Source: Halanaerobiales bacterium
GTDB lineage: Bacteria; Bacillota; Halanaerobiia; Halanaerobiales; DTU029
DNA: 24,000 bases
Direction of reading: 5' to 3'
NCBI GenBank assembly: GCA_029981855.1
Contig: JARRCS010000004.1
Span: 2,074-26,073 of the forward strand
Shown here: positions 2,613 through 24,000 of the stretch, piece by piece
Layout: each line of letters opens with the position of its first letter
Position numbering within the stretch: position 1 is the stretch's first letter
Position numbers and translations under genes: made by a program
The notes under the pieces: model-generated
The model's database searches: none
Seen by the model: only the letters and a program-made list of their open reading frames with translations
What the model was told of the DNA's origin: nothing

Positions 2613-2647
2613 AAGGTTTCTGCAATCGGAAACATCTATTTGTAGTT
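2613..2647. repeat. Repeat-family copy E: right-end fragment (3' arm of module H plus the right inverted repeat)
   Basis: 2613-2632 is identical (20/20) to 19343-19362. 2624-2642 is identical (19/19) to 20619-20637. It ends with CATCTATTTGTAGTT, the reverse complement of the AACTACAAATAGATG seen at 22317. Confidence 0.8.
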
Positions 2648-3808
2648 TAACAGGTCCAGTACCAGTCTGGCATTATAGATGGCTTGTTGATAAAAATCCT
2701 CCATTTTATGTTCCAGCAGGGTAATAAACTTCTCCCGGTTTTCCCAGACTGCCTGACAGACCCTCTTAAGGCTTTCAACATCCAGATCATCAAGCTCCAT
2801 CAGGGAGTTAACCCCCAGCATCTCCAGAAAACCCTTAACCTTGGGGTCATAGCTTAAAGCGACAAAGGGCAGGTGCTGGAGGGCAGCAAAGATCAGAGAG
2901 TGCAGCCTGACTCCGAGCAAAAAATCCAGCCTGGCAAAGAGCTTAAGCATCTCCAGCGGGTCATACCGGTCTGACAAGATCCGGACCTTACTCGCCAGCA
3001 AACCGGCCAGCTTCCTGCTTACCTCCTGATCCTGCCGGTAGTGCATAGGGATAATGATAATCTCCCCTCCGGTCAGCCCGGAGATAAAATCAGCGGTCCG
3101 GGCTACCTTTTCCAGATAGGAGTTATCACCCCAGGGTCTGACCGAAATTCCGATCAAGGGCTTTTCTTTTCTAATATCTGCCTTCACTTTAGCCTTCATA
3201 CCCTTTTCTTGCAGTAGTTTCTCGCTCTCAGTCCATTCCCTCCCCTTGAGGGCAAAAACCGGATCACTGGTTATTTTGATCAATCCGGGATCAACTCCGA
3301 GCTCAATGAAAAAATCCCGGGAGTTTCTATCCCTGACCGTTATTAAGTCGGTCCTGTTTGCTATTAGCCTGACAAACAGCCTCCCGCCCCTTCCTTTAAT
3401 CGGGCCGACTCCCTGAGCATAAAAAACAGTCTTTTTCCCCCTTAACTGGGCAAAAAAGACCTGACTGAGATAGTAGGGGATGGTTCTCCAGCTGGTTACA
3501 TCCTGAAGCAGACTCCCTCCCCCACTGATCAGGAGATCACACCGCGAGATCTCCCGCAAAACTGCCCTTAAATCATTACGGTAAACGGATTCAACCTGAT
3601 ACCTGGCCGCCGTTACCTCGGGCTGATTTGATAGAACAACTATCTCGAGCGGCTCTCTCTCTTCCCGGTAAAAACCAATTCTCTTCTCTTTCTGGGGGAG
3701 ACCGGACTCCTTTAATTCCTGGCGGAGAGCAGAGATTATACCTACCAGAACGGCCTCATCACCGAGATTATCAAACCCGTAATAACCGGAAATAACAATC
3801 CTAGCCAT
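2636..3808 (-). CDS. csaB: Polysaccharide pyruvyl transferase CsaB
   Basis: MARIVISGYYGFDNLGDEAVL... is the CsaB N-terminal signature. The protein is about 390 aa and sits next to tagA and DUF5693. The start is the ATG at 3808 (the TTG at 3811 is also possible). The last codons AAC TAC AAA TAG lie inside the repeat. Confidence 0.85.
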   Translation of the reverse strand: MARIVISGYYGFDNLGDEAVLVGIISALRQELKESGLPQKEKRIGFYREEREPLEIVVLSNQPEVTAARYQVESVYRNDLRAVLREISRCDLLISGGGSLLQDVTSWRTIPYYLSQVFFAQLRGKKTVFYAQGVGPIKGRGGRLFVRLIANRTDLITVRDRNSRDFFIELGVDPGLIKITSDPVFALKGREWTESEKLLQEKGMKAKVKADIRKEKPLIGISVRPWGDNSYLEKVARTADFISGLTGGEIIIIPMHYRQDQEVSRKLAGLLASKVRILSDRYDPLEMLKLFARLDFLLGVRLHSLIFAALQHLPFVALSYDPKVKGFLEMLGVNSLMELDDLDVESLKRVCQAVWENREKFITLLEHKMEDFYQQAIYNARLVLDLLNYK

Positions 3809-7579: not shown

Positions 7580-7583
7580 CTTA

Positions 7584-10154: not shown

Positions 10155-10185
10155 TATAATCACCCTCTGGGTATTCTAGGCATTA

Positions 10186-10217: not shown

Positions 10218-10235
10218 CCTCATTCCCCAGATTTA

Positions 10236-10264
10236 ATTATAACACCATTTAAACTAAAACTCAA
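10236..10264 (-). promoter_or_regulatory. Sigma-A type promoter upstream of secA
   Basis: Minus strand: TTGAGT (10264-10259), a 17-nt spacer, and TGtTATAAT (extended -10; TATAAT at 10241-10236). Confidence 0.5.
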
Positions 10265-10283
10265 CTGAGATTTAAAACCCTCT

Positions 10284-11924
10284 TTAACCCTTTAAGATCT
10301 CTTTTGCTTCCTCATCAAAGGCCTCGGTCAGGTAAGGAAGTCCGGTTACTTCGGCCGTCTCTTTGTTGGCAGCGACCAGGTCAGAACGGCTGATACTATC
10401 TATGCTGAACTTCCGGGCACCGGCCATAAACTGCTGCAGTCCCGCTGATAGCTTGTCAACTAAGGTCCAGAGGGCGACAGCGCCGAAGGGGATATTCTTC
10501 ATCTCATCCTCGCCGACAATCTCCATTACATCATACCAGCCGGCAAAGATACTCTCCGGAGTCTCTCCGAATTCGGTAACGGTATTGGGCAGCTTATCCC
10601 AGTTGCCGTTTAGTTTTTCCCTTCTCTCCGGATAGAATACCCCTTCAATATTGGAGCCGAGGAAACCGGGGATCATCGGTGCCCTTCCCATACAGACAAG
10701 CTTGACATAGGGGGCCCCTAAAGCTAGAGCTTTGAAGATATGGTCCTCCCTGGCCAGACCGCCTGCCAGAGCCAGATCGGGTACCCTGATTCCCTGCTCG
10801 TTTAGGATATCTGCATATTCAATTGCCTTACTGTGCAGGGGCAGGGAAGGTATACCCCAGTGCTCCATCATGTTCCAGGGGCTCATACCTGTACCTCCGC
10901 CGGCTCCATCTATCGTAAGTAAGTCCAGGCCGGCATCGGCAGCAAAACGGAGAGCCATAGCTAAACCCTTCATTCCGTAAGCACCGGTCTTTAATGAAAT
11001 TCGCTTAAAGCCGAGCTTCCGTAAGTATTCTACAGAGTTCATAAAACTCTCCCTCAGGGCAGAAACTGTATCTGCATCAGTTCCTCCCAGTCTGCTGTGG
11101 CGGGCAAAACTCTGCAGGGAACCATTTTTAAAGGCCTCCTGATTCTTTTTCAGGGTCGGGTCAGGATCAACTACATAACCCCTCTCGGCCAGAAACCGGG
11201 CATATTCCAGGCTCTTAACCTGAATCTCTCCACCAATATCTTTAGCCCCCTGGCCCCATTTTAATTCGATGATTACATCATCACCATAGTTTTCTACCAC
11301 ATATTCGGCAACACCATTCCGGGTATCCTCAACATTTAACTGGACGAAGATTGCCCCACCGCCATCGGCATATTTGAGATAGGTCTTGATCCGCCGGTCT
11401 AACTCAGGTGCTTTGACGACCTTACCATCTTCAATCACTGCTTCCCGGTCAACACCGACAACATTCTCACCGATTACAATTGGAAAGCCGGCCAGGGCCG
11501 CACCGATGGCAAAGGAATCCCAGTACTTGGCCGCAATAAAGGTTGAGCCCAGGGCACCGGTCATAATCGGGACCTTACATTTTGTCTTAACCTCATTACC
11601 GAACTCTGTCTCGATATTTACATTAGGAAAAATACAATCATCAGCACTGTTACTTAATCCCTCCGGTAGGCCCTCAGCTCCATGGGTATAGCCCTGAATC
11701 CTAAGGGCATGGTAACCTACTCCCTGGGGGGCAATATTGGCGCTTCCGGAGGTAATCTCCCCGAAGTCCCTGGGGTAGAGCATCTTTCTTCCTCGCAAAG
11801 AGGAAAGCCAGGTCTCACACTTCCCCTGACAGTCGGCTCTACACAGGGTACAGAGTCCGGATTCTGCCGGATCACCCCTATTCACCGTTCCCAGTGCATC
11901 ATTTCTCTTTCTCCAATTACTCAT
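10284..11924 (-). CDS. FMN-binding glutamate synthase family protein (GltB FMN-domain-like)
   Basis: 546 aa. It has an N-terminal Cys cluster (CTLCRADCQGKC), then PIMTGALGS..., LKTGAYG, IDGAGGGTGMSP and LALAGGL, as in the PF01645-type glutamate synthase central domain. Confidence 0.75.
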   Translation of the reverse strand: MSNWRKRNDALGTVNRGDPAESGLCTLCRADCQGKCETWLSSLRGRKMLYPRDFGEITSGSANIAPQGVGYHALRIQGYTHGAEGLPEGLSNSADDCIFPNVNIETEFGNEVKTKCKVPIMTGALGSTFIAAKYWDSFAIGAALAGFPIVIGENVVGVDREAVIEDGKVVKAPELDRRIKTYLKYADGGGAIFVQLNVEDTRNGVAEYVVENYGDDVIIELKWGQGAKDIGGEIQVKSLEYARFLAERGYVVDPDPTLKKNQEAFKNGSLQSFARHSRLGGTDADTVSALRESFMNSVEYLRKLGFKRISLKTGAYGMKGLAMALRFAADAGLDLLTIDGAGGGTGMSPWNMMEHWGIPSLPLHSKAIEYADILNEQGIRVPDLALAGGLAREDHIFKALALGAPYVKLVCMGRAPMIPGFLGSNIEGVFYPERREKLNGNWDKLPNTVTEFGETPESIFAGWYDVMEIVGEDEMKNIPFGAVALWTLVDKLSAGLQQFMAGARKFSIDSISRSDLVAANKETAEVTGLPYLTEAFDEEAKEILKG

Positions 11925-12076
11925 CTCTACTCACTCCTCAAAATGTTGTATAATTAAATATTTTTTCTATATATTTATTCTCTTAAAATACGAAAAACCC
12001 TTTTCACTATGTGAAAATTTTTAATACTTTCGCACCTCCTGAGAATAATACCCGCAAACTAATCTATCAATGGGCA

Positions 12077-12110
12077 AGAAAAAACCAGCGGATCATAATC
12101 TCCCGCTGGT
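12077..12110 (-). terminator. Rho-independent terminator after hpf
   Basis: Minus strand: ACCAGCGG (12110-12103) / CCGCTGGT (12091-12084) with an 11-nt loop is followed by TTTTTCTT. Confidence 0.75.
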
Positions 12111-12138
12111 AGTAGCCACGTAATGTTTCAATATGTTT

Positions 12139-12702
12139 TTAAAAAGTCGGCTCGATCAAGCCGTAGTTGCCATCCTTCCTCTTATAAACAACATTGACCT
12201 CTTCGGTCTCGGCATTGGAAAAGACAAAAAAGTCATGACCGAGGAGATCCATCTGCATAATCGCCTCCTGAACATCCATCGGCTTTATCGCAAACCTCTT
12301 GGTACGAACAATCTTGGGCTCAAATTCATCTTCTTCAATATCCTCGTCATTAAATAGTTCTTCTGTTCTCTCTTCCTTATACTCTTCCTTAAACTCCTGC
12401 TTTCTCTCTCTGATCTTGCGAGTAATTTTTGTTTTATATTTACGTACCTGGCGTTCCAGTTTCTCAATAACGCCATCAATAGAGGCATACATATCATGTG
12501 TTTCTTCCTCTCCCCTGAGAATAATCCCATTGATATAAGCAGTTACCTCTACAATATGCCTATCCTTCTCAACCTGCATAGAAATATGGGCTTCCAGAGG
12601 TGCTCCATTGAAAAACTTGGCGATCTTACTGACCTTTTCCTCCGCGTAATTCTTTAAAGCCGGAGTAACATCAATATTCTTTCCATAGGTCATAATCTTC
12701 AT
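12139..12702 (-). CDS. hpf: Ribosome hibernation promoting factor, long form
   Basis: 187 aa. MKIMTYGKNIDVTPALKNYAEEKVSKI... is the S30AE N-domain. An acidic/basic linker follows, then a C-terminal dimerisation domain (RFAIKPMDVQEAIMQMDLLGHDFFVFSNAETEEVNVVYKRKDGNYGLIEP). Confidence 0.93.
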   Translation of the reverse strand: MKIMTYGKNIDVTPALKNYAEEKVSKIAKFFNGAPLEAHISMQVEKDRHIVEVTAYINGIILRGEEETHDMYASIDGVIEKLERQVRKYKTKITRKIRERKQEFKEEYKEERTEELFNDEDIEEDEFEPKIVRTKRFAIKPMDVQEAIMQMDLLGHDFFVFSNAETEEVNVVYKRKDGNYGLIEPTF

Positions 12703-12893
12703 TTTACCCGCCCCTTTCTTAAAATCTTAATGTCTAGTAAATTATGCATAGCTGAATCTGTGCACAATTTACGACATCAACAAATTGACCTTTTAAATGA
12801 TTATAGTAAAGCCAATTTGTTCAAATTATGTTAAGCCAAAACCAACATAATTTCCGCCATAACAACTACTAAAACTTCAGTATATTATAATTA

Positions 12894-12923
12894 ATATTCG
12901 ACAAAAAGATAATAAATTCCTGC
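12894..12923 (-). promoter_or_regulatory. Candidate sigma-H promoter for hpf
   Basis: Minus strand: GCAGGAATT, a 12-nt spacer, then GTCGAATAT. This matches the B. subtilis sigma-H consensus RNAGGAWWW-N11-12-RNNGAATWW as I recall it. A TATAAT (12890-12885) directly follows. Confidence 0.4.
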
Positions 12924-13040
12924 CTAAAATATTTATACCATCCCCTATTTATTCTCCTTGACTTTTAGAATATTTATTCATTTAATAATCGCTTTAGAGA
13001 TTATGATTAGGTAATCGGCGAAAATTATTCCCCGGCAATC

Positions 13041-13072
13041 AAAAAAACCCTGATCACTTAGAGCAATCAGGG
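13041..13072 (-). terminator. Rho-independent terminator after the cold-shock gene
   Basis: Minus strand: CCCTGAT (13072-13066) / ATCAGGG (13054-13048) with an 11-nt loop is followed by TTTTTTT (13047-13041). Confidence 0.75.
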
Positions 13073-13106
13073 TGGTGTTGCTATATTATAAGGTCCTTAC
13101 ATACCA

Positions 13107-13310
13107 TTATAATTTAACAACATTTGCGGCTTGAGGACCACGATCACCTTCTACGATCTCAAATTCTACATCCTGGCCTTCTTCCAGTGTCTTGAATCCT
13201 TCATCCTGGATGGCAGAGAAGTGGACAAATACATCATCACCATCTTCTCTTTCAATAAAACCATAACCTTTCTGTGCATCGAACCATTTCACCTTACCAG
13301 AAAAAATCAT
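13107..13310 (-). CDS. Cold-shock protein, CspA family
   Basis: 67 aa. [30 protein letters not shown] contains the RNP1/RNP2 motifs. AGGAGGA lies upstream of the ATG. Confidence 0.95.
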
Positions 13311-13381
13311 CTTTAAACATTCCTCCTAAAAATTCTTTAAATGGGCATTCGTTTTCCTAAGTATTTGTACCCATCAACATT

Positions 13382-13410
13382 ACTATAACATAACCCCGGA
13401 TACTTGTCAA
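13382..13410 (-). promoter_or_regulatory. Sigma-A promoter of the cold-shock gene
   Basis: Minus strand: TTGACA (13410-13405), a 17-nt spacer and TATAGT (13387-13382), with an A/T-rich UP-like tract upstream. It predicts a leader of about 65 nt. Confidence 0.65.
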
Positions 13411-13461
13411 ATAAATTTTTAATTGATTTTGCCTATTTTTACAAATTATTTCCGGCGATTA

Positions 13462-14205
13462 TTAATCCTGAATTCTCCCGGTGGCCAGAGTTAAAACATA
13501 AACCGATTTTATCCCACCCTTCTCTTTCAAAACAAGACTTGCTTCATTTACCGTAGCACCGGTAGTTAAAATGTCATCAATTAAAAGGATAACCTTATCC
13601 TTAATTTTTTCTCTATCAGCAAGCGCAAAACTACCCCTGATTACCCTATCCCTCTCTTCCGGGCCGAGATTATAGAGGGGCTGACTGTTTTTTATTCTCA
13701 GTAAAGCTCCGGTTAGTACCGGAATTCCGCATTTTTTTCCCAGAGAATCAGCCAGTATTCCGGCCTGATTATAACCCCTCTCCTCTTCCCTTTTTGCATG
13801 CAAAGGAATAGGAATAAGATAATCTATCCTATAATTATCATAATAGTGATGAAAATAAAGGGTTAAAAGCTCACTTAACGGCTCCTTTAATTCCAGGATA
13901 TGGCCGTATTTAAACTTCAGAATCAGCTCCCTCATCATCCCGTCATAGAGAGCAACACTTCTGGCCAGATTAAAATTAAAGGGTTTTGACCTGCATAATC
14001 TGCATAAAGCCGGCTTTTCCGGTGAAATAACCCGTCCACAATGGAGACAATAGTAATTAATAAAGTCAATCTTCCTCAGACATTCAGGACATAACCCTTT
14101 TATCTCCGGAAAAAATAATCTGGCGCCACAGTTAAAACATCGCTCCCTTTCCGGATAAACCATATCTAGTATGCTTGACCAAACCTTTAGTAATAACCCC
14201 CGCAT
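13462..14205 (-). CDS. comFC: ComF family protein (ComFC-type phosphoribosyltransferase-fold competence protein)
   Basis: 247 aa. It has N-terminal Cys pairs (CFNCGA...CPEC, CLHCG...CRLC) and a C-terminal PRTase motif (VILLIDDILTTGATVNEA). Confidence 0.85.
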   Translation of the reverse strand: MRGLLLKVWSSILDMVYPERERCFNCGARLFFPEIKGLCPECLRKIDFINYYCLHCGRVISPEKPALCRLCRSKPFNFNLARSVALYDGMMRELILKFKYGHILELKEPLSELLTLYFHHYYDNYRIDYLIPIPLHAKREEERGYNQAGILADSLGKKCGIPVLTGALLRIKNSQPLYNLGPEERDRVIRGSFALADREKIKDKVILLIDDILTTGATVNEASLVLKEKGGIKSVYVLTLATGRIQD

Positions 14206-14212
14206 TTTGGAT

Positions 14213-14836
14213 CTAACCTACTAAATCCTGCAGATTAAAGTTCTCCCTTATCTTCTCGATCTTTTTCCGGGCACGCTGTAAGGCATTATCTACCGCCTTA
14301 ATGTTTACCTCCAGGTTAGTAGAAATCTCCTGATAGGACTTGCTTTCTAAATACTGCATAAAAACCTCTTTTTCTAACTCCGTTAATTCATCATCTATGA
14401 CCTTAAAAATCATCCTTAACTGTTCCTGATAGATAAATCTTTCTTCCAGACCATTTTCATTACTGGCCAGTATCTCTTTATAACTACGGTTATTCTCATT
14501 ATTATCAAAGGATTTATCGATTGAGGTTGAACTATTTAGGGGGATATGTTTCTGTCTGTTGGCCCGTTTAATCGCAGAAACAAGCTGTCTATGGATACAT
14601 AACTGGGCAAATCCCCGGAAAGAAGCAGCCCTTTCAATCCGGTAATCCCTGATTGCCTTAAACAGCCCTACCATGCCCTCCTGGATTACATCATCACGGT
14701 CAAGTCCCTTGATGAAAAAATACCTTGCTTTGGCATAAACAATATCCATATTATTATTAATTAGATACTCAATCGCCTGCCGGTTTCCCTTCTGAGCCTG
14801 TTTAATAATCTCCTCTTCTTCCTGCTGTTTAAACAT
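14213..14836 (-). CDS. sigH: RNA polymerase sigma factor SigH (sigma-30 type)
   Basis: 207 aa. DDVIQEGMVGLFKAIRDYR...SFRGFAQLCIHRQLVSAIKRANRQKHIPLNSSTSIDK closely follows B. subtilis SigH (FAELCITRQIITAIKTATRQKHIPLNSYASLDK). The C-terminal part is SYQEISTNLEVNIKAVDNALQRARKKIEK. Confidence 0.85.
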   Translation of the reverse strand: MFKQQEEEEIIKQAQKGNRQAIEYLINNNMDIVYAKARYFFIKGLDRDDVIQEGMVGLFKAIRDYRIERAASFRGFAQLCIHRQLVSAIKRANRQKHIPLNSSTSIDKSFDNNENNRSYKEILASNENGLEERFIYQEQLRMIFKVIDDELTELEKEVFMQYLESKSYQEISTNLEVNIKAVDNALQRARKKIEKIRENFNLQDLVG

Positions 14837-14860
14837 TTTATCACCCCGGACGCAAGGAAT

Positions 14861-14989
14861 TTAGTCAAGGATAAATTTAAAAATCTGGTCAAAGGAAATA
14901 TTTAAGTCAACAATGGTTGCCATCACCAGTAAAATGATCAAGACCATTAAAAAATTAACTTCCCATTTTTTTAAAATCTGCTTTTTCAT
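14861..14989 (-). CDS. Hypothetical 42-aa membrane peptide
   Basis: The translation is MKKQILKKWEVNFLMVLIILLVMATIVDLNISFDQIFKFILD, with one hydrophobic helix. The ATG starts 2 nt after the hldC stop (TGAATATG) and the ORF fills the hldC-sigH gap. It is below the ORF-track length cutoff and I recognise no homolog. Confidence 0.3.
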   Translation of the reverse strand: MKKQILKKWEVNFLMVLIILLVMATIVDLNISFDQIFKFILD

Positions 14990-14991
14990 AT

Positions 14992-15465
14992 TCATAACCC
15001 TTTAATTTTTTTAATAATCTCTGACGTAGAGCAACCATTTACTACAGGAACCAGTTCAACCTCTCCTCCGTAATCCTTAACAACCGACCATTCCGGCAGG
15101 GTTGACAAGGTATAATCCCCACCTTTAACATAGACATCTGGCTTAAGTTCCCGCAGCAGACAGGAGGAGGTAGTCTCATTAAAAATAACCAGGTAATCGA
15201 TCATCTCCAGGTAGGATAATAATTCCACCCGCTCATCCTGCGACATAATCGGTCTCTTTTCTCCCTTTAACTGACGCACCGAACTATCACTATTAACCCC
15301 GACAATTAAAACATCTCCCAAAGCCTTTGCTTTGGCCAGGGAACGGACATGACCGACATGGATCAGGTCAAAACAGCCATTAGTAAAGACAATTCTTTTC
15401 TTCTGCTGCCGGAGCCTGGCTACAATCTCTTTTAGTTCGGCTAACTCTTTAATCTTTTCCTCCAT
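14992..15465 (-). CDS. hldC: D-glycero-beta-D-manno-heptose 1-phosphate adenylyltransferase (RfaE domain II type)
   Basis: 157 aa. VFTNGCFDLIHVGHVRSL is the cytidylyltransferase HxGH motif, followed by VGVNSDSSVRQLKGEKRPI and VKGGDY. It overlaps hldA by 17 nt. Confidence 0.8.
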   Translation of the reverse strand: MEEKIKELAELKEIVARLRQQKKRIVFTNGCFDLIHVGHVRSLAKAKALGDVLIVGVNSDSSVRQLKGEKRPIMSQDERVELLSYLEMIDYLVIFNETTSSCLLRELKPDVYVKGGDYTLSTLPEWSVVKDYGGEVELVPVVNGCSTSEIIKKIKGL

Positions 15466-16450
15466 TTTTCAGCACTTCCTTCCTTAATTCCTCCGGGGTT
15501 ACGGTGGCCACCCCGCTTTTCCTTATGACAATACCTGCTGCATAATTAGCCAGTTCCATAGCTGTATAAATATCCGCTCCGGAGCTTAAAGCCAGGGTAA
15601 GTGTACCTACAACAGTATCACCTGCCCCGGTCACATCAAATACCTCTGTATAATTGGCTGCCGGTATGTGCTTATAATCACCTCCCCTGGTAAAAATGGT
15701 CATCCCCTCTCCACCCTGGGTAATCAGCAGGTAATCCAGATCCATCTGTGGCAGGAGCTCTTTCCCCGCATCTATAACCTCTGCCTGAGTGGTAATGCTT
15801 CGCCCCAGGGCATAACCTGCCTCTTCCAAATTGGGGGTAGCAATTGTTGCCCCCCGGAAATCGCGTAGATTAAACCTGGTATCGACGGAAACAACCTTTT
15901 TCTTCTTCCTGGCGAGCTGAATTACCTCTCTTTTAACCCTTTCAGTAAAGACACCATTTCCATAATCAGATAACAAAATCCCGTCAATATTCTCTATTCC
16001 GGAAGAGATATAATCCAGGATCTTCTCCTCAATATCCTTCTTAATTGGGGATCTATCGAGGTAGTCTATTCTTACGACCTGCTGTTTGACAACCTGTTCC
16101 CCTCCCGCCAGAATCCGGGTTTTAAGAGCAGTAGGTCTATCCTGACAGATAGCAATGCCCCCGGTCTTGATACCCTTCTCCTGGAGGAACTGAGAAAGCA
16201 GGCGGCCCGCCCGGTCATCACCGATCACACCTACCAGGCTAACACTCCCCCCCAGACTGCAGATATTATAGGCCGCATTTGCCCCACCCCCAGGAAGAAT
16301 CTCCGTATTACGGTGGAGTAAGATTAAAACAGGTGCTTCCCTCGAGAGGCGTTCAGGTTGTCCAATTATAAACTCATCAGCAATAATATCCCCTATAACC
16401 ATAATTTTTCGTTCTTTAAACAACGGTATATAGTTCAACAGTTCCTTCAT
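15449..16450 (-). CDS. hldA: D-glycero-beta-D-manno-heptose-7-phosphate kinase (RfaE domain I, PfkB family)
   Basis: 333 aa. IMVIGDIIADEFIIGQPERLSREAPVLIL, GGGANAAYN and the C-terminal DVTGAGDTV are the PfkB/RfaE kinase motifs. Confidence 0.8.
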   Translation of the reverse strand: MKELLNYIPLFKERKIMVIGDIIADEFIIGQPERLSREAPVLILLHRNTEILPGGGANAAYNICSLGGSVSLVGVIGDDRAGRLLSQFLQEKGIKTGGIAICQDRPTALKTRILAGGEQVVKQQVVRIDYLDRSPIKKDIEEKILDYISSGIENIDGILLSDYGNGVFTERVKREVIQLARKKKKVVSVDTRFNLRDFRGATIATPNLEEAGYALGRSITTQAEVIDAGKELLPQMDLDYLLITQGGEGMTIFTRGGDYKHIPAANYTEVFDVTGAGDTVVGTLTLALSSGADIYTAMELANYAAGIVIRKSGVATVTPEELRKEVLKNGGKD

Positions 16451-16565
16451 CCTTAAATGGCGTAAGATACCCCGTCCTCTATAAGGCGAGGAGGAATGCG
16501 CCTTCCCCCTTCCTGTTAAGCAGAATAGATGTAACCATAACCATCAACTCTTAATTACAGCAGGA

Positions 16566-18413
16566 TTAGTCAGGTTTAACGATTATTAATCCGTTGCTGA
16601 TTAACCGTTTATCACTAGGATTATTCATGGTATAGCCTCTTACCACCATCCTGGCCGAGCCACCACCATCCAAATTCATACCCTTTACAACACCGTAGTC
16701 TAACATAAATTGGGCCAGTTCTTCCAGAGATATGCCGATACTCAAATCAGGCTGCCTGCCATCAACCGTAAAGATTAGTAAATGGCCTTCACTGTTAATT
16801 CCCAGAGCCGAACGGGGGGCCCGCCCCCTCGCTATATCCGGCTGAAATTCCTCTTCTGCCGTAGTTATTCTGACCTGACCATCTTTAATCAGCATAGGGC
16901 CCGCCCCCAGGGCAGAAATAACACCTGCATCCTCCCAGTCAGGGTTAAAATCATCCTCATAACTGACCCGGTCCCCAACAGCAAAGCCTGTTAGTTTTGC
17001 TCTGCCTTTTCCCCGGGCCTGTAAGATAAAACCATCTTCAGGAATTATGGTTCTCCTATCAGTTCCTCCTTCATTTATTTGTTTAATCTTATCCTTAGAT
17101 ATTACCAATTCTATTATATCATCCTGAACTGCCGGAGCAAAGGTCCCGTAGTACCTATTATAAATGACAATTTCATCACCGGCAGGCTTACGGTTAACAC
17201 CTGTTACCTCGATTTTAACATCTCCCTTATAACCACTAAATAATCCCCTCCATTCTACCCGGTTGATCAAAAACCTGTTATCACTGGTGATTCCTAAAGC
17301 CGTCCTTTCCTTTACCGGCTCACTCACCATCTGACCATCTATCATTAATAAACCCAGGGGCCGTCCGGTATAACTGAAATATCCGCCGTTAACCCCTGCC
17401 AGTGCACCTCTACTCCTCACCAGGTCACTCAGATCCTCCAGGCCCGGGATTTTACCGTTAGCTAAAACAGGTTCAACCTTATACCTTAATCTATCAAAAC
17501 GCAGTTTAAGTATGGTAATAACCCTTGGGCCCCACCAGGTTAACTGCCTTATCTCCTGATACCTTAAACCCCATTGAATCTCCGCATCTACCTTCAGCTC
17601 CTCTTCTACTACCCTGGTTAAATCTACCAGCTCAAGGCCCTGATAATAGTGGTGTAAAATATCCCGGTAGTCCGAACCTGTGGCTGCCATCACCAGAGAG
17701 TTCTGTACCGGTAACGGGAAATCAATCCTGGCTACTTCTCCCCTCTCCTTTAATATCTGTCCGGCGGTCGAGTTAACTGCATCCCTGATCAGATTATTAA
17801 CATCCACAATTCCCTGATAGGCCGGGAAGGATAATCTTCCGCTTTGATTATTAAAGAGACGGTATAATATATAGGTTCTACCTACCACCGCCTGAGCCTT
17901 TATAGCCGGTAAATAGTCCCTGGAAACCCCGGAGATTTTACCAGCTAGAACCTCAGGCAGTTTACCGGCCAGAATCCCGGAAAGCAGTTCAGATAGGCCT
18001 ACAGTATTATAGATATTAATACCCTTCTTTGTCAGGATAAACTCCACCTTACCGGGGTATACCTCCCGGCCCAGAATAACCTTCCCCTCTATCTCCAGGT
18101 CCCTTCCGGCAAAGAGCCGGTCACCTTTTAAATTATAAAGGGTGATTTTTTCATCAACTCCATCTGCAACCCTGACAAGGTATTTGCTATCCTTCAGAAG
18201 CCGGAAGTATTTTTTACTCTGTAAATCAATTATATCTACATCCTGCAGGGGGGTCAAGGGAAAACCCTTGATCTCATTCTTGATCAGTAAGCGAATCAGT
18301 TTGCCGTCCTGAATAAATTGTCTCACTGGCTCGGAAAAGGCAAAAACATACTGATTTATTAAGATGATAATTAGCAAAGAAATTATTAAAGATAAGAAAC
18401 ATCTGGGTTTCAT
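16566..18413 (-). CDS. Secreted SpoIID/LytB-domain plus phosphodiester-glycosidase (NAGPA/DUF2233) fusion protein
   Basis: The start is set at the ATG at 18413 (GGGGGG upstream), giving MKPRCFLSLIISLLIIILINQYVFA as a signal/anchor. KAQAVVGRTYILY is the SpoIID-type motif. The C-terminal half (GVNGGYF, GLLMIDGQ, PRSALGINSEGHLLIFTVDGRQ, NLDGGGS) is the phosphodiester glycosidase pattern. Confidence 0.7.
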   Translation of the reverse strand: MKPRCFLSLIISLLIIILINQYVFAFSEPVRQFIQDGKLIRLLIKNEIKGFPLTPLQDVDIIDLQSKKYFRLLKDSKYLVRVADGVDEKITLYNLKGDRLFAGRDLEIEGKVILGREVYPGKVEFILTKKGINIYNTVGLSELLSGILAGKLPEVLAGKISGVSRDYLPAIKAQAVVGRTYILYRLFNNQSGRLSFPAYQGIVDVNNLIRDAVNSTAGQILKERGEVARIDFPLPVQNSLVMAATGSDYRDILHHYYQGLELVDLTRVVEEELKVDAEIQWGLRYQEIRQLTWWGPRVITILKLRFDRLRYKVEPVLANGKIPGLEDLSDLVRSRGALAGVNGGYFSYTGRPLGLLMIDGQMVSEPVKERTALGITSDNRFLINRVEWRGLFSGYKGDVKIEVTGVNRKPAGDEIVIYNRYYGTFAPAVQDDIIELVISKDKIKQINEGGTDRRTIIPEDGFILQARGKGRAKLTGFAVGDRVSYEDDFNPDWEDAGVISALGAGPMLIKDGQVRITTAEEEFQPDIARGRAPRSALGINSEGHLLIFTVDGRQPDLSIGISLEELAQFMLDYGVVKGMNLDGGGSARMVVRGYTMNNPSDKRLISNGLIIVKPD

Positions 18414-18474
18414 TTTTTCCCCCCTGGAACAATAATTATTTCGCCCGACCATTATCTTTTATAAGGTAAATTTG

Positions 18475-18504
18475 ATAATACATTGAATAAATTTAACATA
18501 TCAA
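18475..18504 (-). promoter_or_regulatory. Sigma-A type promoter for the SpoIID-like gene
   Basis: Minus strand: TTGATA (18504-18499), an 18-nt spacer and TATTAT (18480-18475). A mirror TTGATA on the plus strand (18472-18477) followed by a 16-nt spacer and TAACAT could fire the opposite way. Confidence 0.45.
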
Positions 18505-18509
18505 ACTCA

Positions 18510-18640
18510 CTTTAATGTTCCGACGGTCCGTAGGGCCCAGTACTTGTAGTGAGACGCAGATGTGCCGAACGGAAAGTGAAACAAAATTTTGCCAACCACT
18601 TTTTGCCCTTCCGTGCGGGGCCGGGACATTTTTAACGTTC
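18510..18640. other. Unassigned GC-rich structured element (element F); candidate sRNA or operon 3' structure
   Basis: It is locally GC-rich within an AT-rich spacer. Three related segments are present: ATGTTCCGACGG (18515-18526), ATGTGCCGAACGG (18560-18572), and the complement of 18611-18629 (ATGTCCCGGCCCCGCACGG). The third can pair with either of the first two. There is an inner hairpin AAAGTG (18573-78) / CACTTT (18598-603), and T5 follows the 3' arm on the plus strand. Confidence 0.35.
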
Positions 18641-18650
18641 ATACGGAAAA

Positions 18651-18989
18651 TCATCTATCTATACTATGCGGCTCTTTTGACTTTAACTCCTGATATAATA
18701 CCCTGCTCAAGCTATTCATACCCTGCTGGTTAGAACCTATTTTACTGATTTCAGTGTCGAGCATATCTGTAAAGATATCTTCGGAAAACCCACCATCGAT
18801 AAACCCGCTCTCGGGAACCGTACCCCGCATAGCCTTAAACATCTGCTTTAAGAAGATTGCCGTAAACTCATTACATAATTCCTTAAGCTGCTCATCCTTA
18901 CTCCCTTTCCCTGACCAGGATTGTTTTTCAAGTTTCCGGGCATCCTGATAGGTTTTATACTGCTGCAAAATTAAATTATCTATCTTCAT
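18651..18989 (-). CDS. flgJ: Flagellar rod-binding protein (FlgJ N-terminal-domain only)
   Basis: 112 aa. ELCNEFTAIFLKQMFKAMR is the Rod-binding (FlgJ N-domain) motif. No muramidase domain is present. AAGGAG lies upstream of the ATG, and the gene is last in the flgFGAHI series. Confidence 0.7.
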   Translation of the reverse strand: MKIDNLILQQYKTYQDARKLEKQSWSGKGSKDEQLKELCNEFTAIFLKQMFKAMRGTVPESGFIDGGFSEDIFTDMLDTEISKIGSNQQGMNSLSRVLYQELKSKEPHSIDR

Positions 18990-19136
18990 TTAAGCCACTC
19001 CTTAAGTTTATACTTCACTTCCATTCAGCAATAACTGCAACAAGCAATTTCCTAGTAGTATTAGATTAATGCCACACTCTGTTCGGCAACTTGCTTTACC
19101 TTCAAACAACTGCAAATAGATGTTGGAGAAATGTTT

Positions 19137-19289
19137 GGAAATTTTTTGCAAATGACTCTTGGTGAATCGGAGTTAAAAATCAGGTCGAGCCACAGGATGT
19201 GGCGAGCTTATCAAGGGTCAGGATGACCCATTTGATAAGTTTGCCTGATTTTTAACGGAGATAAACCTTAGAGTCATCAAAAAATTTCC
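19137..19289. ncRNA. S module: 153-nt three-way-junction fold with twin CAGGATG hairpin loops (strand unresolved)
   Basis: P1 pairs 19137-19148 and 19152-19158 with 19271-19289 (19 bp, with a 3-nt bulge). P2 pairs 19172-19184 with 19244-19256 (13 bp, perfect). P3 is the hairpin 19189-19203 (GCCAC AGGAT GTGGC). P4 is the hairpin 19207-19239 (CTTATCAAGGGTC AGGAT GACCCatTTGATAAG). Both strands of the P1/P2 internal loop contain CGGAG. Confidence 0.5.
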
Positions 19290-19353
19290 CTGCGACGCGC
19301 TCGATGCGCTAGTGCAGAAACCATCATTGCGTAACTAAAAAGAAGGTTTCTGC
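19290..19353. ncRNA. H module, copy 1: two hairpins supported by covariation with copy 2
   Basis: The hairpins are GCGC-TCGAT-GCGC (19297-19309) and GCAGAAACC, a 22-nt loop, GGTTTCTGC (19314-19353). The paired positions co-vary with the copy at 23217-23280. Confidence 0.6.
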
Positions 19354-20487
19354 AATCGGAAAAGCAATTATATCCCTGGGGCTAGCCCCGATAGCATTTA
19401 GAGCTGCCACTATCTCGCCGATGGTCCCCCCACTCGGCACAACCACCATATGGCCTTCTCCCTCCGATATCTTAATCTCCGTCTCTTTAGTGATTGTTGT
19501 CTCACCACCGCTAAAGGGAGCGGGTTGGGAAACCTTCTCACCGCTAGATATCTTTACCGTTAGATTACCATGGGCCACGGAAACTGTCGAAATTCTCACA
19601 TTATGGCCCATAACTATTGTTCCCGTCCGTTCATTAATAACTACCTTGGCCTCCATACCTGCCCGGACCTTAAAATTGTTAATTTTGGCGATAAACTCTA
19701 CCACCTTATCCCTGAACTGTTCCGGTATATTAACATTTACCTTACCGGCATCTACCGCCTCAGCAATCGGTTCAGCAGTAAAAAGGTATTTAAAATTATC
19801 ATTTATTGCCTGGGCAATAAAACTAGCTGTCTCAAAATTCGGCTGGTCCAGCAAAAAGGTCAGGTTTCTATGGCTCAAGCCGAAATTCAATTCCCGTTCC
19901 ACAATGGCCCCTTCCGGTATCCTGGCCACGGTCGGGTGGTTCTTTCTGACCTGAGTTCCACCCGACCTGGTGTTAAATCCCCCGATAGAGACTGGTCCCT
20001 GGGCAACGGCATAGACCTCCCCGTTGGCCGCCTTCAAGGGGGTCATCAGAAGGGTACCTCCCTGCAAACTCTTGGCATCCCCCAGGGAATTTACCGTTAC
20101 ATCTATCCTGTCACCCTTATGGGCAAAGGGAGGAAGACTGGCGGTAACTATTACGGCAGCCAGATTACGGCTGCGAATCTGCTCCGGGGTAACATTAACC
20201 CCGAATTTTTTTAACATATTAGCTACCATCTGGATAGTGGCCTGGCTGCGGTTACTATCACCCGTTCCGGCCAGGCCGATAACAATACCGTTCCCCATCA
20301 ACAGATTATCCCTGATCCCTTCAATCCTGGTTATATCCCCTATATTAACTAGCGGGTCTTCAGGTGAGGCAGCCAAAAGAGAACTACTTAAGGTAATGGC
20401 TAAAGCAATGACTACCGGAACCGCTAATATATACTTAAACAATTTTCTTCTTGCTAAATAACGACCGAAGGCTGATTTATTAATCAT
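19324..20487 (-). CDS. flgI: Flagellar P-ring protein FlgI with a non-canonical, repeat-derived C-terminus
   Basis: 387 aa. A signal peptide is followed by IGDITRIEGIRDNLLMGNGIVIGLAGTGD, typical FlgI, through ...LNAIGASPRDIIA. The final FPIAETFFLVTQ is encoded by the repeat and replaces the usual ILQA.K.AGAL.AEL..I tail. Confidence 0.9.
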   Translation of the reverse strand: MINKSAFGRYLARRKLFKYILAVPVVIALAITLSSSLLAASPEDPLVNIGDITRIEGIRDNLLMGNGIVIGLAGTGDSNRSQATIQMVANMLKKFGVNVTPEQIRSRNLAAVIVTASLPPFAHKGDRIDVTVNSLGDAKSLQGGTLLMTPLKAANGEVYAVAQGPVSIGGFNTRSGGTQVRKNHPTVARIPEGAIVERELNFGLSHRNLTFLLDQPNFETASFIAQAINDNFKYLFTAEPIAEAVDAGKVNVNIPEQFRDKVVEFIAKINNFKVRAGMEAKVVINERTGTIVMGHNVRISTVSVAHGNLTVKISSGEKVSQPAPFSGGETTITKETEIKISEGEGHMVVVPSGGTIGEIVAALNAIGASPRDIIAFPIAETFFLVTQ

Positions 20488-20584
20488 GAACTCCCTCCTT
20501 TCATTAGAACAGTGTAAGACCTTTTTATAGAGAACACTTTATAATTAATCCCTTTCAATTAATACCTCATTATCGTTCGGTAAT

Positions 20585-20642
20585 AACTACAAATAGAGTC
20601 ATCAAAAAATTTCCACTGAATCGGAAACATCTATTTGCAGTT
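20585..20642. repeat. Repeat-family copy B: 58-nt miniature element with both inverted-repeat ends
   Basis: The sequence is AACTACAAATAG...CATCTATTTGCAGTT. The termini pair over about 12 of 13 positions, and there is an inner stem TTTCC/GGAAA. The interior consists of the 21-mer shared with copy A and the AATCGGAAA segment shared with copies A and E. Confidence 0.8.
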
Positions 20643-20671
20643 TTAAAAAAGGAATTTCCTACAGGATTTAA

Positions 20672-21259
20672 TTAGAAGATCCAGTTTAGAAATCTTTCCA
20701 GCAGGCCCGGCTTCTGTTTATCGGCAACAACACCCTTACCCTGGTAATCGATACTTGCCTCGGCCACCTTTTTAGAAGAAACCGTATTCTCCGGTGTTAT
20801 ATCCTCAGGCCTAATGATACCCGATAACCTGATTATCTGTTTCTCTCCATTTATTTTAATCTCCTTGGTTCCTGCAATCCTAAAATTACCACTGGGCAGG
20901 ACTTCCTTAATGATGGTAGTAATATCGGCCTTCAATTTACCGCTCTGTACGGTCTTACCATCTGCAGTGCTCTGATCAGAATAGCTAAAGCCGAAGGCCT
21001 TGATAAAGTCAAAGATACCCAAACCGGAACCTGCATCAATACTGCTTTCCTGGCTGGTATTGGTATTGGCACTCTGAACTGCATTAGCATCTTCCTCAAT
21101 TATAATGGTGACTACATCACCTACCCTGAACTCCCGGTTTTTATCTTCATCCTGATAGAGATTAACAGCCTGGTCTGACCAGAGGGAATTATCAGCAAAT
21201 ACTGTCAAACTGTAGGAACAAACCACTATAATCAGCAAGAATAATTTAACCTTCACCAC
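20672..21259 (-). CDS. flgH: Flagellar L-ring protein FlgH
   Basis: 195 aa. After a signal peptide come SLWSDQAVNLYQD, FRVGDVVTIIIEE and SGNFRIAGTKEIKINGEKQIIRLSGIIRPEDI, which is the FlgH pattern. It uses a GTG start with GGGGGAG upstream. Confidence 0.85.
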   Translation of the reverse strand: MVKVKLFLLIIVVCSYSLTVFADNSLWSDQAVNLYQDEDKNREFRVGDVVTIIIEEDANAVQSANTNTSQESSIDAGSGLGIFDFIKAFGFSYSDQSTADGKTVQSGKLKADITTIIKEVLPSGNFRIAGTKEIKINGEKQIIRLSGIIRPEDITPENTVSSKKVAEASIDYQGKGVVADKQKPGLLERFLNWIF

Positions 21260-21269
21260 TATCTCCCCC

Positions 21270-22268
21270 TTACGGTTGGATCACTCTTACCAGGTGGGAA
21301 TTAATAACCTGAGCTTTAAATCTGTAACCGGTCTTCAGATTCTCCACCAGAATATATTCGCCCTTTTTACCGTTTTCCCGGGCTTTAACAAGGGTAGAAA
21401 CCCTGATATTACCTACTATTACCTCTGCCTTTAGTACGTCCCCAAAAGATACGATATCCGGTATTATCAAATAATAGCTTGTCAGGATGCTACCTCTGGT
21501 AATCGGGATATTAACAATACCCTCCTTAACCAGTCTATTATTAAAATCTGTAATTAATTCGCCCCGGAAACTACCTATTTCCCTGGTTTCTATACTAAAA
21601 TCATCCCTAACAAGTCTTTCTCCCTTCTTAATGCTTCGTTTTGCTACAAATACCTCCTGTAACAACTTAACTTCAAATCCAAGATAGACCCTTTTATAGA
21701 CCTGCCCATCGATTTTAAGTAAAACCCGTAAGGATACATTCCCCTTAAGTTCTTGCTGGCCCATCAGATCAATCTCCAGGGAATAATCCCTATCCGGTAT
21801 TATTAAATCAGGGGGGTTGAACCTCGGTATAATCTCTACCCTGCCAGCCGGACAATTAACCTTTTCTTTTAAATAATCTCTGGCAAAGGCGATAATAGTA
21901 TCACTACTTACCCTCCGGCTAGCAGTCTTAACTGTCACCTTATAAGGCATATGCAGGGTAAAACTTGCGGGGGAATAGCCCTTCTGCTGGATCGCCAGAG
22001 AGATGAGTTCCCTGGGTATCTCCCGTTCATAGCCCGGGAGCAGGGCCTGGCCCAGATCAACCGAGGCAATTTCAGCCAGCTTCTCCCCTTCAACCCCTTC
22101 GATCCGGGCTATATCCCCCAGCGTAATTCGAGAATCGGAAACCTCAACATATTCCGGTATGATAATCTTAATTGTCCCCGCCTTAACCCCGCTGTTAAAA
22201 ACTAACGTGACCATTAAGATGAACAAGATCAATAATCGATAGAGATTTCTATTAATAAAAACCCGCAT
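21270..22268 (-). CDS. flgA: Flagellar P-ring assembly chaperone FlgA (SAF domain)
   Basis: 332 aa. It has a signal/anchor, an ITLGDIARIEG segment, a SAF-like VAKRSIKKGERLVRDDF, and a C-terminal GDVLKAEVIVGNIRVSTLVKARENGKKGEYILVENLKTG. It sits between flgG and flgH. Confidence 0.7.
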   Translation of the reverse strand: MRVFINRNLYRLLILFILMVTLVFNSGVKAGTIKIIIPEYVEVSDSRITLGDIARIEGVEGEKLAEIASVDLGQALLPGYEREIPRELISLAIQQKGYSPASFTLHMPYKVTVKTASRRVSSDTIIAFARDYLKEKVNCPAGRVEIIPRFNPPDLIIPDRDYSLEIDLMGQQELKGNVSLRVLLKIDGQVYKRVYLGFEVKLLQEVFVAKRSIKKGERLVRDDFSIETREIGSFRGELITDFNNRLVKEGIVNIPITRGSILTSYYLIIPDIVSFGDVLKAEVIVGNIRVSTLVKARENGKKGEYILVENLKTGYRFKAQVINSHLVRVIQP

Positions 22269-22316
22269 TTTTACTCACTACTCTTTGTTTAACTAGTTTA
22301 TTAAATCTTGGAGATA

Positions 22317-22345
22317 AACTACAAATAGATGCTCGAGAGATGTTT
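22317..22345. repeat. Repeat-family copy C: isolated end fragment abutting the flgG stop
   Basis: AACTACAAATAGATGCTCGAGAGATGTTT matches the left end of copy A (19108-19136) at 25/29. The flgG stop codon (22344-22346) overlaps its last bases. Confidence 0.7.
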
Positions 22346-23132
22346 ACCGCCTCAACTGGCTAGCAGTCCTCAACATCTCATCAGCCGCCTGGATTGCCTT
22401 GGAATTAATTTCATAGGCCCTCTGGGCAGCTATCATATTGACCATCTCTTCAACAACCTTGACATTGGACATCTCCAGGAAACCCTGGGCAATTGTCCCA
22501 TACCCAGCAGCTCCCGGGTTATTCACCATCGGCTCACCGGAAGCAACCGTGGCCTCAAAGAGGTTGCGCCCGATACTATTTAACCCGGCGGGATTCGAGA
22601 AACGGGCCAGCTCGATCTGCCCCAGTTGCTGCGGTTGATTATCCCCGGCTATGCGTACGGTAACAGTACCATCAGAGGTGATACTGATCTCAGTTGCATC
22701 TTGAGGAATATAGATCTCGGGCTGAATGGGGTAGCCATCAGAGGTGACAATCCTGCCACTACTATCCTGTTTTAAAGAACCATCCCGTGTATAGGCGATA
22801 GACCCGTCAGGACGTAATACCTGTAAAAACCCATCACCCTCAATCACAATATCTAAAGGATTACCCGTATTCTGAACACTACCGGCAGAAAAAATCTTCT
22901 GGGTAGCCGAGACCTTTGAGCCGTGTCCAATCTCAATACCAATAGGAACCTGTGCCCCCTGGGCATTGGGGGTTCCCGGTTCACGTAAGCGCTGATACAT
23001 TATATCCTGAAAATTCACCCGGCTCTTTTTAAATCCGGTTGTATTGACATTAGCCAGGTTATTTGAAATAACATCTATATTGGTCTCCTGAGCATCCATC
23101 CCGGTTGCAGCAGTCCATAAAGCACCTATCAT
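22344..23132 (-). CDS. flgG: Flagellar basal-body distal rod protein FlgG
   Basis: MIGALWTAATGMDAQETNIDVISNNLANVNTTGFKK... at the N-terminus, and a C-terminal GFLEMSNVKVVEEMVNMIAAQRAYEINSKAIQ. The start is set at the ATG at 23132 (GGGAG 8 nt upstream) rather than the ORF-track 23183. Confidence 0.92.
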   Translation of the reverse strand: MIGALWTAATGMDAQETNIDVISNNLANVNTTGFKKSRVNFQDIMYQRLREPGTPNAQGAQVPIGIEIGHGSKVSATQKIFSAGSVQNTGNPLDIVIEGDGFLQVLRPDGSIAYTRDGSLKQDSSGRIVTSDGYPIQPEIYIPQDATEISITSDGTVTVRIAGDNQPQQLGQIELARFSNPAGLNSIGRNLFEATVASGEPMVNNPGAAGYGTIAQGFLEMSNVKVVEEMVNMIAAQRAYEINSKAIQAADEMLRTASQLRR

Positions 23133-23216
23133 TAAAATCACTCCCTGTTTTTTGATTTCGTAATTCGGGGTTGTCTCTGTCATTCAACAACCCTATCAGC
23201 CTCCGTAAAGGTCCAG

Positions 23217-23326
23217 CTGCGACGCACTCGATGTGCTAGTGTCTAAACCATCATTGCGTAATTTTAAAGAAGGTTTAGACCGACATGCTCGATGCAAAAA
23301 GCAAATTTCTGTAGTATCTGGTTAAT
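23217..23326. repeat. Repeat-family copy D: H module copy 2, a second CTCGATG mini-hairpin and module X
   Basis: 23217-23280 aligns with 19290-19353 at 53/64, and every stem difference is compensated. 23293-23326 aligns with 19036-19070 at roughly 80% by eye (module X). It ends 5 nt from the flgF stop. Confidence 0.75.
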
Positions 23327-23331
23327 CCTAC

Positions 23332-24000
23332 TTACCCGACTCTGCCAACACTATTAACAGCCTTATCAAGGGTACTGTCAAGACTTTTAATAACCTTCTG
23401 ATTGGCCTCAAAGATACGGTTAACCTCAATCATCCTGACCATCTCCTGAAGGGTTTTAACATTGGAGCTCTCTAGATAACCCTGTCTTAACCGGTAGCCG
23501 GCCGTAAGCTGCTCTCCTGCGGTCCGGCTGCTGTAAAGATTATCTCCAATCTTCTCTAGCTGACTTTTATCCGGGAAGTCTACGATCAAGAAACGGTCAC
23601 CGCGTAGATTTCCCAGGTGAAGCCGTCCGTTACCGTCAATTTTGATCTCCCTGCCGGTAATCGTCTGGAGCGGTCCCCTCTCACCCCTGACCGGGTAACC
23701 CTGTTGAGTAACTATCTGCCCCTGCTGATTAAGGGTGAAGTTGCCGTTACGGGTATATCTAAGTCCTGCCGGGGTCTCAATCACAAAGAAACCATCACCC
23801 TCCAGAGCTACATCCAGCTTATTACCGGTATGTTTTAGATAACCCTGCCTGAAATCTGTATAGGTCTCCTCCAGGCTGACACCGGTACTCATAGAACCGA
23901 TATCCCCCGCTTTCCGGCCTTCTTCAATCCGGGAGATTAAAACCTCGGGAAAGGACTGTTCTATCCCTTCATCACGCTTAAAACCGGCGGTACTGGCATT
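23332..24000 (-). CDS. flgF: Flagellar basal-body rod protein FlgF (N-terminus beyond the window)
   Basis: The reading frame stays open to position 24000 (...NASTAGFKRDEGIEQSFPEVLISRIEEGRKAGDIGSMSTGVS...), so the ORF-track ATG at 23892 is internal. The C-terminal part GYLESSNVKTLQEMVRMIEVNRIFEANQKVI is a rod-protein signature. Confidence 0.8.
   Translation of the reverse strand, partial: NASTAGFKRDEGIEQSFPEVLISRIEEGRKAGDIGSMSTGVSLEETYTDFRQGYLKHTGNKLDVALEGDGFFVIETPAGLRYTRNGNFTLNQQGQIVTQQGYPVRGERGPLQTITGREIKIDGNGRLHLGNLRGDRFLIVDFPDKSQLEKIGDNLYSSRTAGEQLTAGYRLRQGYLESSNVKTLQEMVRMIEVNRIFEANQKVIKSLDSTLDKAVNSVGRVG

Follow-up and report, generated by a model that had tools for sequence, protein, structure and literature searches.

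A TwoAYGGAY-like three-way-junction fold in a truncated flgI gene is probably the centre of a mobile foldback repeat

A 153-nt three-way-junction fold lies antisense to the flg genes in the window, by which is meant the whole 24,000-nt stretch of DNA analysed here, and it is probably the centre of a non-coding, mosaic foldback (long-palindrome) repeat whose insertion at the 3′ end of flgI is peculiar to this strain. The original prediction had cast the fold as a possible decoy RNA inside the flagellar operon, a role that is left unsupported, with the fold located in an insertion block that is absent from sibling strains and that truncates flgI. The features on which the argument draws are collected in Table 1.

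Table 1. Positions of the fold, its parts and the related repeat modules within the window
Feature	Position	Strand	Basis or remark
Three-way-junction fold, 153 nt	19137..19289	+ (antisense to flg genes)	RNA/DNA folding; TwoAYGGAY-like
P1 5′ arm, GGAAATTTTTTG(CAA)ATGACTCT	19137..19159	+	partner of 19270-19289
P1 3′ arm	19270..19289	-	gene-sense reading = GGAAATTTTTTGATGACTCT
Hairpin A, GCCACAGGATGTGGC	19189..19203	+	MFE fold
Hairpin B, loop within GGGTCAGGATGACCC	19204..19242	+	MFE fold; 2-nt bulge; two basal G.U pairs
Inner 83-nt unit with both CAGGATG hairpins	19173..19255	+	sequence
Left modules B and C (TTTCCGATTGCAGAAACC... ...CATCGAGCGCGTCGCAG)	19290..19362	-	two hairpins; repeat families D1, D5
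Module C copy, flgF-flgG spacer	23217..23292	-	all strains of this species; not in related species
Outer right arm (AAACATTTCTCCAA, CATCTATTTGCAGTT, GTTTGAAGG...GTGTGGCA)	19070..19136	-	repeats D11, I24
Related repeat, flgH-flgI spacer, 123 nt	20530..20652	-	replaces 8 nt of siblings
Modules F and A′	22315..22345	-	directly after flgG stop codon; repeat D11
Modules A and B (AAACTACAAATAGATGTTTCCGATTGCAGAAACCTT)	2613..2648	-	pyruvyl-transferase/WecG gene junction
Strain-specific block, 293 bp	19070..19362	-	BLAST of L006, L008, L009 vs window
flgI, truncated	19324..20487	-	residues 1-375 FlgI; 376-387 (FPIAETFFLVTQ) from inserted block

All genes of the window are encoded on the - strand, and the flagellar cluster runs in the order flgF, flgG, flgA, flgH, flgI and a rod-binding flgJ-like gene, followed by a SpoIID/NAGPA gene and rfaE-type genes. 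The nearest named FlgI homologues belong to Halanaerobiales, for example that of Halothermothrix orenii at 65% identity. Three related contigs (L006, L008 and L009) are 99% identical to the window and lack the 293-bp block; they encode an intact FlgI of 393 aa, and their flgI-flgJ spacer is 71 nt long. The 293 nt running from 19362 down to 19070 in the window stand in place of 48 nt of the flgI 3′ end in these siblings, a replacement rather than a clean insertion, and the presence/absence polymorphism with an empty site applies to the whole block and not to the 153-nt unit alone.

In the window's FlgI, the conserved 18-residue tail is gone and 12 foreign residues stand at the end; the match to the Pfam FlgI profile reaches no further than residue 375 of 387 (profile position 326 of 343). 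This tail is kept in all 120 of the 120 closest homologues, where 115 have G[AS][LIV]H and the other five GALY or SALH, and a public assembly (P0001) encodes a 393-aa FlgI that is 99% identical to the window's and ends in the tail IIQEIKAAGALHAKIELI. An excisable or intron-like sequence capable of restoring flgI was considered and rejected, since the lost 48 nt occur nowhere else in the window and the out-of-frame tail ICSCLKVKQVAEQSVALI is unlike the FlgI tail. That 18-codon reading (ICSCLKVKQVAEQSVALI and a stop) spans 19069-19122 and is made up of the block's last 48 nt plus TTAATCTAA; its length exactly equals that of the lost FlgI tail at a DNA identity of only about 31%, and the match in length is probably a coincidence.

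A third allele was found in sample SRR13298159, where it comprises the end of contig L005 and the start of contig L007. The former carries an intact flgI and ends in ...TAGGAAATTCCTTTT, while the first 67 nt of the latter are 100% identical to window positions 19329-19263 (module C plus the left P1 arm) and pass into the normal spacer at the junction of TTTC with AAATTGCTTG, the rest of the fold being missing. This allele has module C and only the left P1 arm, placed 3′ of an intact flgI.

The fold itself is real. The + strand RNA has an MFE of -74.1 kcal/mol (z = -11.8), and none of 200 shuffles was as stable; the - strand folds to -66.1 kcal/mol (z = -11.6), and under DNA parameters the + strand reaches -45.7 kcal/mol (z = -13.2). 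On the + strand, P1 is predicted to consist of 12 + 8 bp flanking a 3-nt CAA bulge, for a total of 20 bp, and to be lengthened by two more 3-bp helices, with P2 predicted to pair 19172-19185 with 19243-19256 through 13 Watson-Crick pairs and one U.G pair. Both the sequence and the MFE fold bear out the identical CAGGATG that had been noted in the two hairpin loops on the + strand. The inner 83-nt unit that carries these hairpins folds on its own to -40.5 kcal/mol (z = -7.8) and is bounded by a perfect 12-bp inverted repeat (TTAAAAATCAGG / CCTGATTTTTAA). Two copies of CGGAG, at 19168-19172 and 19256-19260, had been described as unpaired elements of an internal loop; both are present and are direct repeats abutting the 12-bp inverted repeat of the inner unit. 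Such an arrangement is the signature expected of an 83-nt insertion into an older palindrome.

The stems had been held to be pure Watson-Crick and hence silent on the transcribed strand, which proved wrong. The MFE structure of the + strand contains 63 pairs, including 3 G.U pairs, whereas that of the - strand contains 60 pairs and no G.U pair, so the stems are not strand-neutral, and this asymmetry may serve as a weak pointer to the + strand. The predicted total of six GGA triplets was correct (19125, 19137, 19169, 19195, 19221 and 19257), although the first begins at 19125 and not at 19124. Two are situated in the hairpin loops and two in the internal loop; of the remaining two, one belongs to the flank and the other is paired at the beginning of P1. 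GGA enrichment was discarded as evidence, as dinucleotide-preserving shuffles of 19124-19289 average 4.5 triplets with P(>=6) = 0.24; what is notable about the triplets is only that two of them are placed in identical loops.

The absence of a convincing plus-strand promoter or terminator, remarked upon originally, was echoed by consensus scans, which found no promoter-like site on the + strand in 19000-19137 and no terminator-like site on the + strand 3′ of 19289. On neither strand does the fold show a G+C-rich stem with a U-tract behind it, as an intrinsic terminator would have. The modules were also compared by eye with sigma-28, sigma-54 and sigma-70 promoters, and no acceptable match was seen; a sigma-70-type scan of 18400-20750 likewise found nothing at the module copies covered.

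The 293-bp block is a mosaic of modules that recur in the window, where they are present in 2-5 copies. For example, AAACTRCAAATAGATG (gene-sense) occurs five times in both orientations compared with 0.13 expected, TTTCCGATTGCAGAAACC occurs at 2615-2632 and again at 19345-19362, and a window pattern search for the P1 arm, GGAAATTTTTTG(CAA)ATGACTCT, returned 3 matches compared with 0 expected. P1 itself is built from one module present twice in inverted orientation, and this module also stands by itself: the P1 arm is found without the rest of the fold in a 21-nt stretch at about 20594-20614 and in L007 beside module C. A 60-nt module is shared at 87% identity between 19290-19349 and 23217-23276, and the two copies of module C (19290-19365 and 23217-23292) preserve both of their hairpins through four compensatory changes, with TGCAGAAACC/GGTTTCTGCA becoming GTCTAAACC/GGTTTAGAC and GCGC..GCGC becoming GCAC..GTGC. 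Because these changes keep the hairpins, module C is a structured repeat in its own right; it has no match in Rfam.

In inverted orientation, the outer right arm of the block corresponds to the left half of the related 123-nt repeat that occupies the flgH-flgI spacer. This repeat forms a foldback of its own (AACTGCAAATAG...CTATTTGTAGTT) and carries a lone P1 arm without the twin-hairpin core. Since ~85 nt of homology link the left half of that repeat to the reverse complement of the block's right part, the palindrome arms reach well past P1. Inverted 17-mers flanking flgI (I24 and I17) are explained as arms of the foldback repeats; an invertible switch acting through them was rejected, all related contigs having the same orientation. 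CRISPR-like repeats were considered as well, and no array was found.

Contigs of related strains start or stop inside the modules, and two independent contigs (L015 and L016) begin inside the modules A/B repeat, as expected for multi-copy repeats. In the window, modules A and B at 2613-2648 overlap the pyruvyl-transferase stop codon and lie 18 nt upstream of the WecG start. Five of the six module-bearing sites are in the 5-kb flg cluster (18400-24000 vs 1-18400). Related species (67-76% FlgI identity) have spacers of 10-23 nt at flgG-flgA, flgH-flgI and flgI-flgJ, and neither modules nor a TwoAYGGAY match were found in their loci. Spacers in the cluster measure 69-148 nt in this species, and related species have 78-153 nt at flgF-flgG.

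The junction of TAGGAAATT with CCTTTTTT is identical at two independent sites (window 20640-20660; L005 3805-3828; L007 60-80), and AAATT is repeated at both junctions of the L005/L007 allele. Possible explanations for the shared junction and AAATT are a preferred target, a duplication of 5 bp or a site-specific core.

Other observations on the cluster concern its spacers and gene starts. The flgF-flgG spacer contains a sequence conserved across species, CAGCTGGACC...GGAAGCTGA (window ~23150-23216, L017 ~1100-1160, L018 ~7060-7110 and L019 ~175-235), followed by a hairpin whose sequence varies by species and reads GGGTTGTTGA...ACAACCC in the window and in L019; it may be a leader element of flgG. 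The longest flgG ORF (22344-23183, 279 aa) starts 17 codons upstream of its homologues (262 aa, MIGALW...), and translation probably begins at the ATG at 23132. A third insertion polymorphism is seen at 18520-18631, a GC-rich stretch of ~112 nt between the flgJ-like and SpoIID/NAGPA genes that is missing in L007 and present in L009, with L006 and L008 ending inside it; it has no target duplication and only a modest fold (-28 kcal/mol).

Searches for further copies were uniformly negative. The window and about 60 kb of related loci yielded no other complete copy of either the 153-nt fold or its 83-nt core, and no further copies were detected in genome, metagenome or viral collections, plasmids, phages or the protein database. 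Within genome and metagenome contigs, the P1-arm pattern gave only chance matches in unrelated coding DNA; in viral contigs, the twin-loop pattern and the A+B module gave chance coding matches or nothing. Neither the block nor a gut foldback from the literature had a blastn match among plasmids and phages. The block contains no ORF of at least 60 aa: the longest ORF confined to its interior has 31 aa, and a 47-aa ORF (19008-19151) exits its right end. Its read-through ORFs, searched as a 53-aa peptide and as a 423-aa all-frame concatenate, matched nothing in the protein database.

At Rfam gathering cut-offs, nothing was found in the window. Under E-value reporting, the covariance model of TwoAYGGAY (RF01731) matches 19135-19291 on the + strand from end to end (model positions 1-168 of 168) with 29.5 bits, a score that falls short of the 43-bit gathering cut-off, and with E = 0.0091 in a 351-nt search and 0.061 in a 2.35-kb search. 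As membership in RF01731 is not established, the fold is best called TwoAYGGAY-like. Its loops align as CA-GGAUG to the family consensus CAuGGAUG, the Y before GGA being missing in both. Published members have U, A, C or G at that position, and the 7-nt form of the loop recurs in a few of them as CA-GGACG, confined to the second hairpin. A core-only model, which was built from 12 published TwoAYGGAY cores with strong covariation and without the present sequence, gave its best window match at 19182-19246 (+) with only 11.3 bits and an E-value of about 0.28-0.3. The GGA strand of the published family has 8 G.U cells vs 1 A.C cell. One further candidate, the reverse complement of Bacillaceae-1 (RF01690), was rejected: on the - strand, only hairpin A resembles it weakly (19184-19210), and a match confined to one hairpin that scores 15 bits, far under the cut-off of 35, does not confer membership.

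The published TwoAYGGAY alignment also contains evidence of repetition. Psychromonas ingrahamii contributes at least five near-identical copies (PMC2864571), and three gut-metagenome copies from different contigs of the same alignment form the tips of ~345-nt foldbacks with energies of -165 to -173 kcal/mol, whose flanks diverge just beyond the right arm. The left outer flank is common to the three gut copies and includes a marked stop codon (PMC2864571, supplementary file 99). Judging from these flanks, the gut foldback may mark one end of a larger repeated unit. The fold described here is best read as a variant of an already known motif, and what is new is the evidence that such motifs ride mobile foldback repeats.

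The element probably spreads as a non-autonomous mobile repeat, with inverted repeats as its ends and a fold that serves the element itself. The twin CAGGATG hairpins of the + strand could then provide a twin site for a dimeric protein on single-stranded RNA or DNA. CsrA is the sole named candidate for that protein, a mobilising enzyme being the alternative, and the G.U pattern, both here and in the family, suggests that the + strand would be the one displayed. The inner 83-nt unit may have landed mid-way in an older palindromic repeat, an event that would explain the large and variable P1. The host would probably be left with a defective P-ring protein and with a highly stable hairpin in its flgI-flgJ transcript; a dedicated decoy RNA is not a likely effect. 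Neither P1 nor the 293-bp block is bordered by a target-site duplication, and neither a transposase nor any other gene that could mobilise the element was observed. An RNA that serves the host would likewise be consistent with the conserved GGA loops and the G.U asymmetry.

The resemblance of the fold to Csr/Rsm-type sites is genuine, its loops being exactly the CsrB repeat CAGGAUG. The general form of that repeat, CAGGA(U/A/C)G, fits both hairpin loops. The decoy idea is not new, because Gardner & Eldai in 2015 proposed TwoAYGGAY and the reverse complement of Bacillaceae-1 as CsrA-binding sRNAs of Clostridia and Bacilli (PMC4333381); motif resemblance is what placed TwoAYGGAY in the Csr-Rsm binding clan, and no report of a CsrA-binding test for it since that proposal was found in the literature. 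No csrA/CsrA or fliW/FliW domain occurs in the window. The flagellar context looks like an accident of insertion because the block is strain-specific, truncates flgI and is built of repeated modules, because no promoter or terminator was found on the + strand and its GGA count is at chance level, and because csrA and fliW are missing from the window.

A CsrA/Rsm-type decoy, in which a + strand RNA would bind a CsrA dimer through its twin CAGGAUG loops and titrate it off flagellar mRNAs, is an unlikely explanation, despite the fit of the loops, the CsrA binding proposed for TwoAYGGAY (PMC4333381), the 3 G.U pairs that only the + strand has and the excess of G.U over A.C cells on the family's GGA strand. 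Besides the failure to find + strand transcription signals and the lack of csrA and fliW in the window, just 2 GGAs are found in hairpin loops within a total that does not exceed that of shuffles, the element destroys the flgI tail and is missing from sibling strains and related species, and a single dimer site would need very high expression to act as a sponge. An action in cis on the flg mRNA, modelled by analogy on REP, BOX, ERIC and Correia repeats, seems quite improbable too. The - strand, which is the sense strand of the operon and folds nearly as well (-66 kcal/mol), would here stabilise the upstream message, offer an RNase III site or lessen read-through into flgJ; other module copies do lie at gene ends (2613-2648 and 22315-22345), and small mobile repeats are known to exert such side effects (PMC2229807, PMC3184786). 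The - strand stem, however, has no U-tract, no terminator-like site was found at the fold, sibling strains manage without it, and both the family similarity and the G.U pattern favour the + strand. Since the fold comes with a truncated flgI, any effect in cis is secondary.

The hairpins might instead be recognised as DNA, as a single-stranded signal that an integrated rolling-circle or conjugative element left behind, such as a lagging-strand origin, an ssDNA promoter or a nicking site. The equally significant fold under DNA parameters, the long foldbacks around published family members and the left outer flank common to the three gut copies, as if the foldback ended a larger unit, would all suit such a signal, yet it must be judged very improbable for a block of just 293 bp in a window devoid of replication, relaxase and transfer genes, with no plasmid or phage similarity found. 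A chance palindrome or an assembly artefact is scarcely credible given a z-score of -11.8, an Rfam family match that runs from end to end, and the 67 nt (module C and the - strand P1 arm) that are 100% identical in the independent assembly L007; moreover, a k-mer mis-join is unlikely because the flgI junction shares only 5 nt with the repeat. The mobile foldback repeat is the explanation that we favour.

If the fold is part of such a repeat, several consequences follow. The insertion that brought the fold in also damaged flgI, so that nothing can be learned about the fold's function from the adjacent genes, and its seeming connection with flagellar regulation disappears. At the same time, a curated but uncharacterised Rfam motif becomes tied to mobile-repeat behaviour by varying presence among strains, a position inside foldbacks, modular arms and what may be a target duplication, and should this link hold, TwoAYGGAY would have to be re-examined as a repeat before it serves as evidence for CsrA sponges in Firmicutes. 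The intact, block-bearing and one-arm alleles of flgI also make up a natural allelic series that is ready for questions of P-ring assembly, flgJ expression and CsrA binding. As a long shot, the TwoAYGGAY-type twin hairpins could be mobile CsrA-binding modules, in which a selfish foldback carries a high-affinity dimer site. Were this true, a module transcribed anywhere would tap into CsrA control, here in the flagellar operon of a diderm Firmicute, and it would be the first RNA outside the Gammaproteobacteria to act as an antagonist or client of CsrA, and one spread by transposition.

Comparison with known systems places the fold closest to TwoAYGGAY, with which it shares a long closing stem, a junction and two adjacent terminal hairpins with same-strand CA(N)GGAYG loops, along with a second hairpin of similar length; published copies are multi-copy and, like this one, embedded in foldbacks, and their P1 has been described as ‘often very large’ (Weinberg et al. 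2010, PMC2864571). There are differences nonetheless, as both loops are one nucleotide shorter here (CAGGAUG), hairpin A has 6 bp vs about 10, and P2 is lengthened to 14 bp across a region that forms an internal loop in the family. One TwoAYGGAY stem contains tandem G.A pairs (PMC4333381), whereas hairpin B has a 2-nt AU bulge and no tandem G.A (GA/AG internal loop). Moreover, the Halanaerobiales-like host is a taxon not listed for the family.

With CsrB, RsmY and RsmZ, sRNAs of a type established only in Gammaproteobacteria (PMC4333381), the fold shares GGA in the loops of short hairpins, the loop sequence CAGGAUG and a pair of sites, ~26 nt apart here, that would suit one CsrA dimer. Those sRNAs differ in having about 5-22 loop sites rather than two; the present element has no promoter or terminator of its own that could be found, is antisense inside an operon and is not conserved even between strains.

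Finally, the element can be set beside MITEs and palindromic repeats such as Correia, ERIC, BOX, RUP, Rickettsia RPE and BIME/REP. It departs from them in having no target duplication at its outer ends and in replacing 48 nt, and it has no sequence similarity to any named family and no known partner transposase. In other respects the likeness is close: the element is small, non-coding and strongly self-complementary, has a mosaic, modular build, is found at gene ends and here also inside a gene, varies in presence and absence between close strains, and possesses inverted repeats (20 bp in P1 and 12 perfect bp in the inner unit) together with a 5-bp direct repeat that abuts the inner unit.
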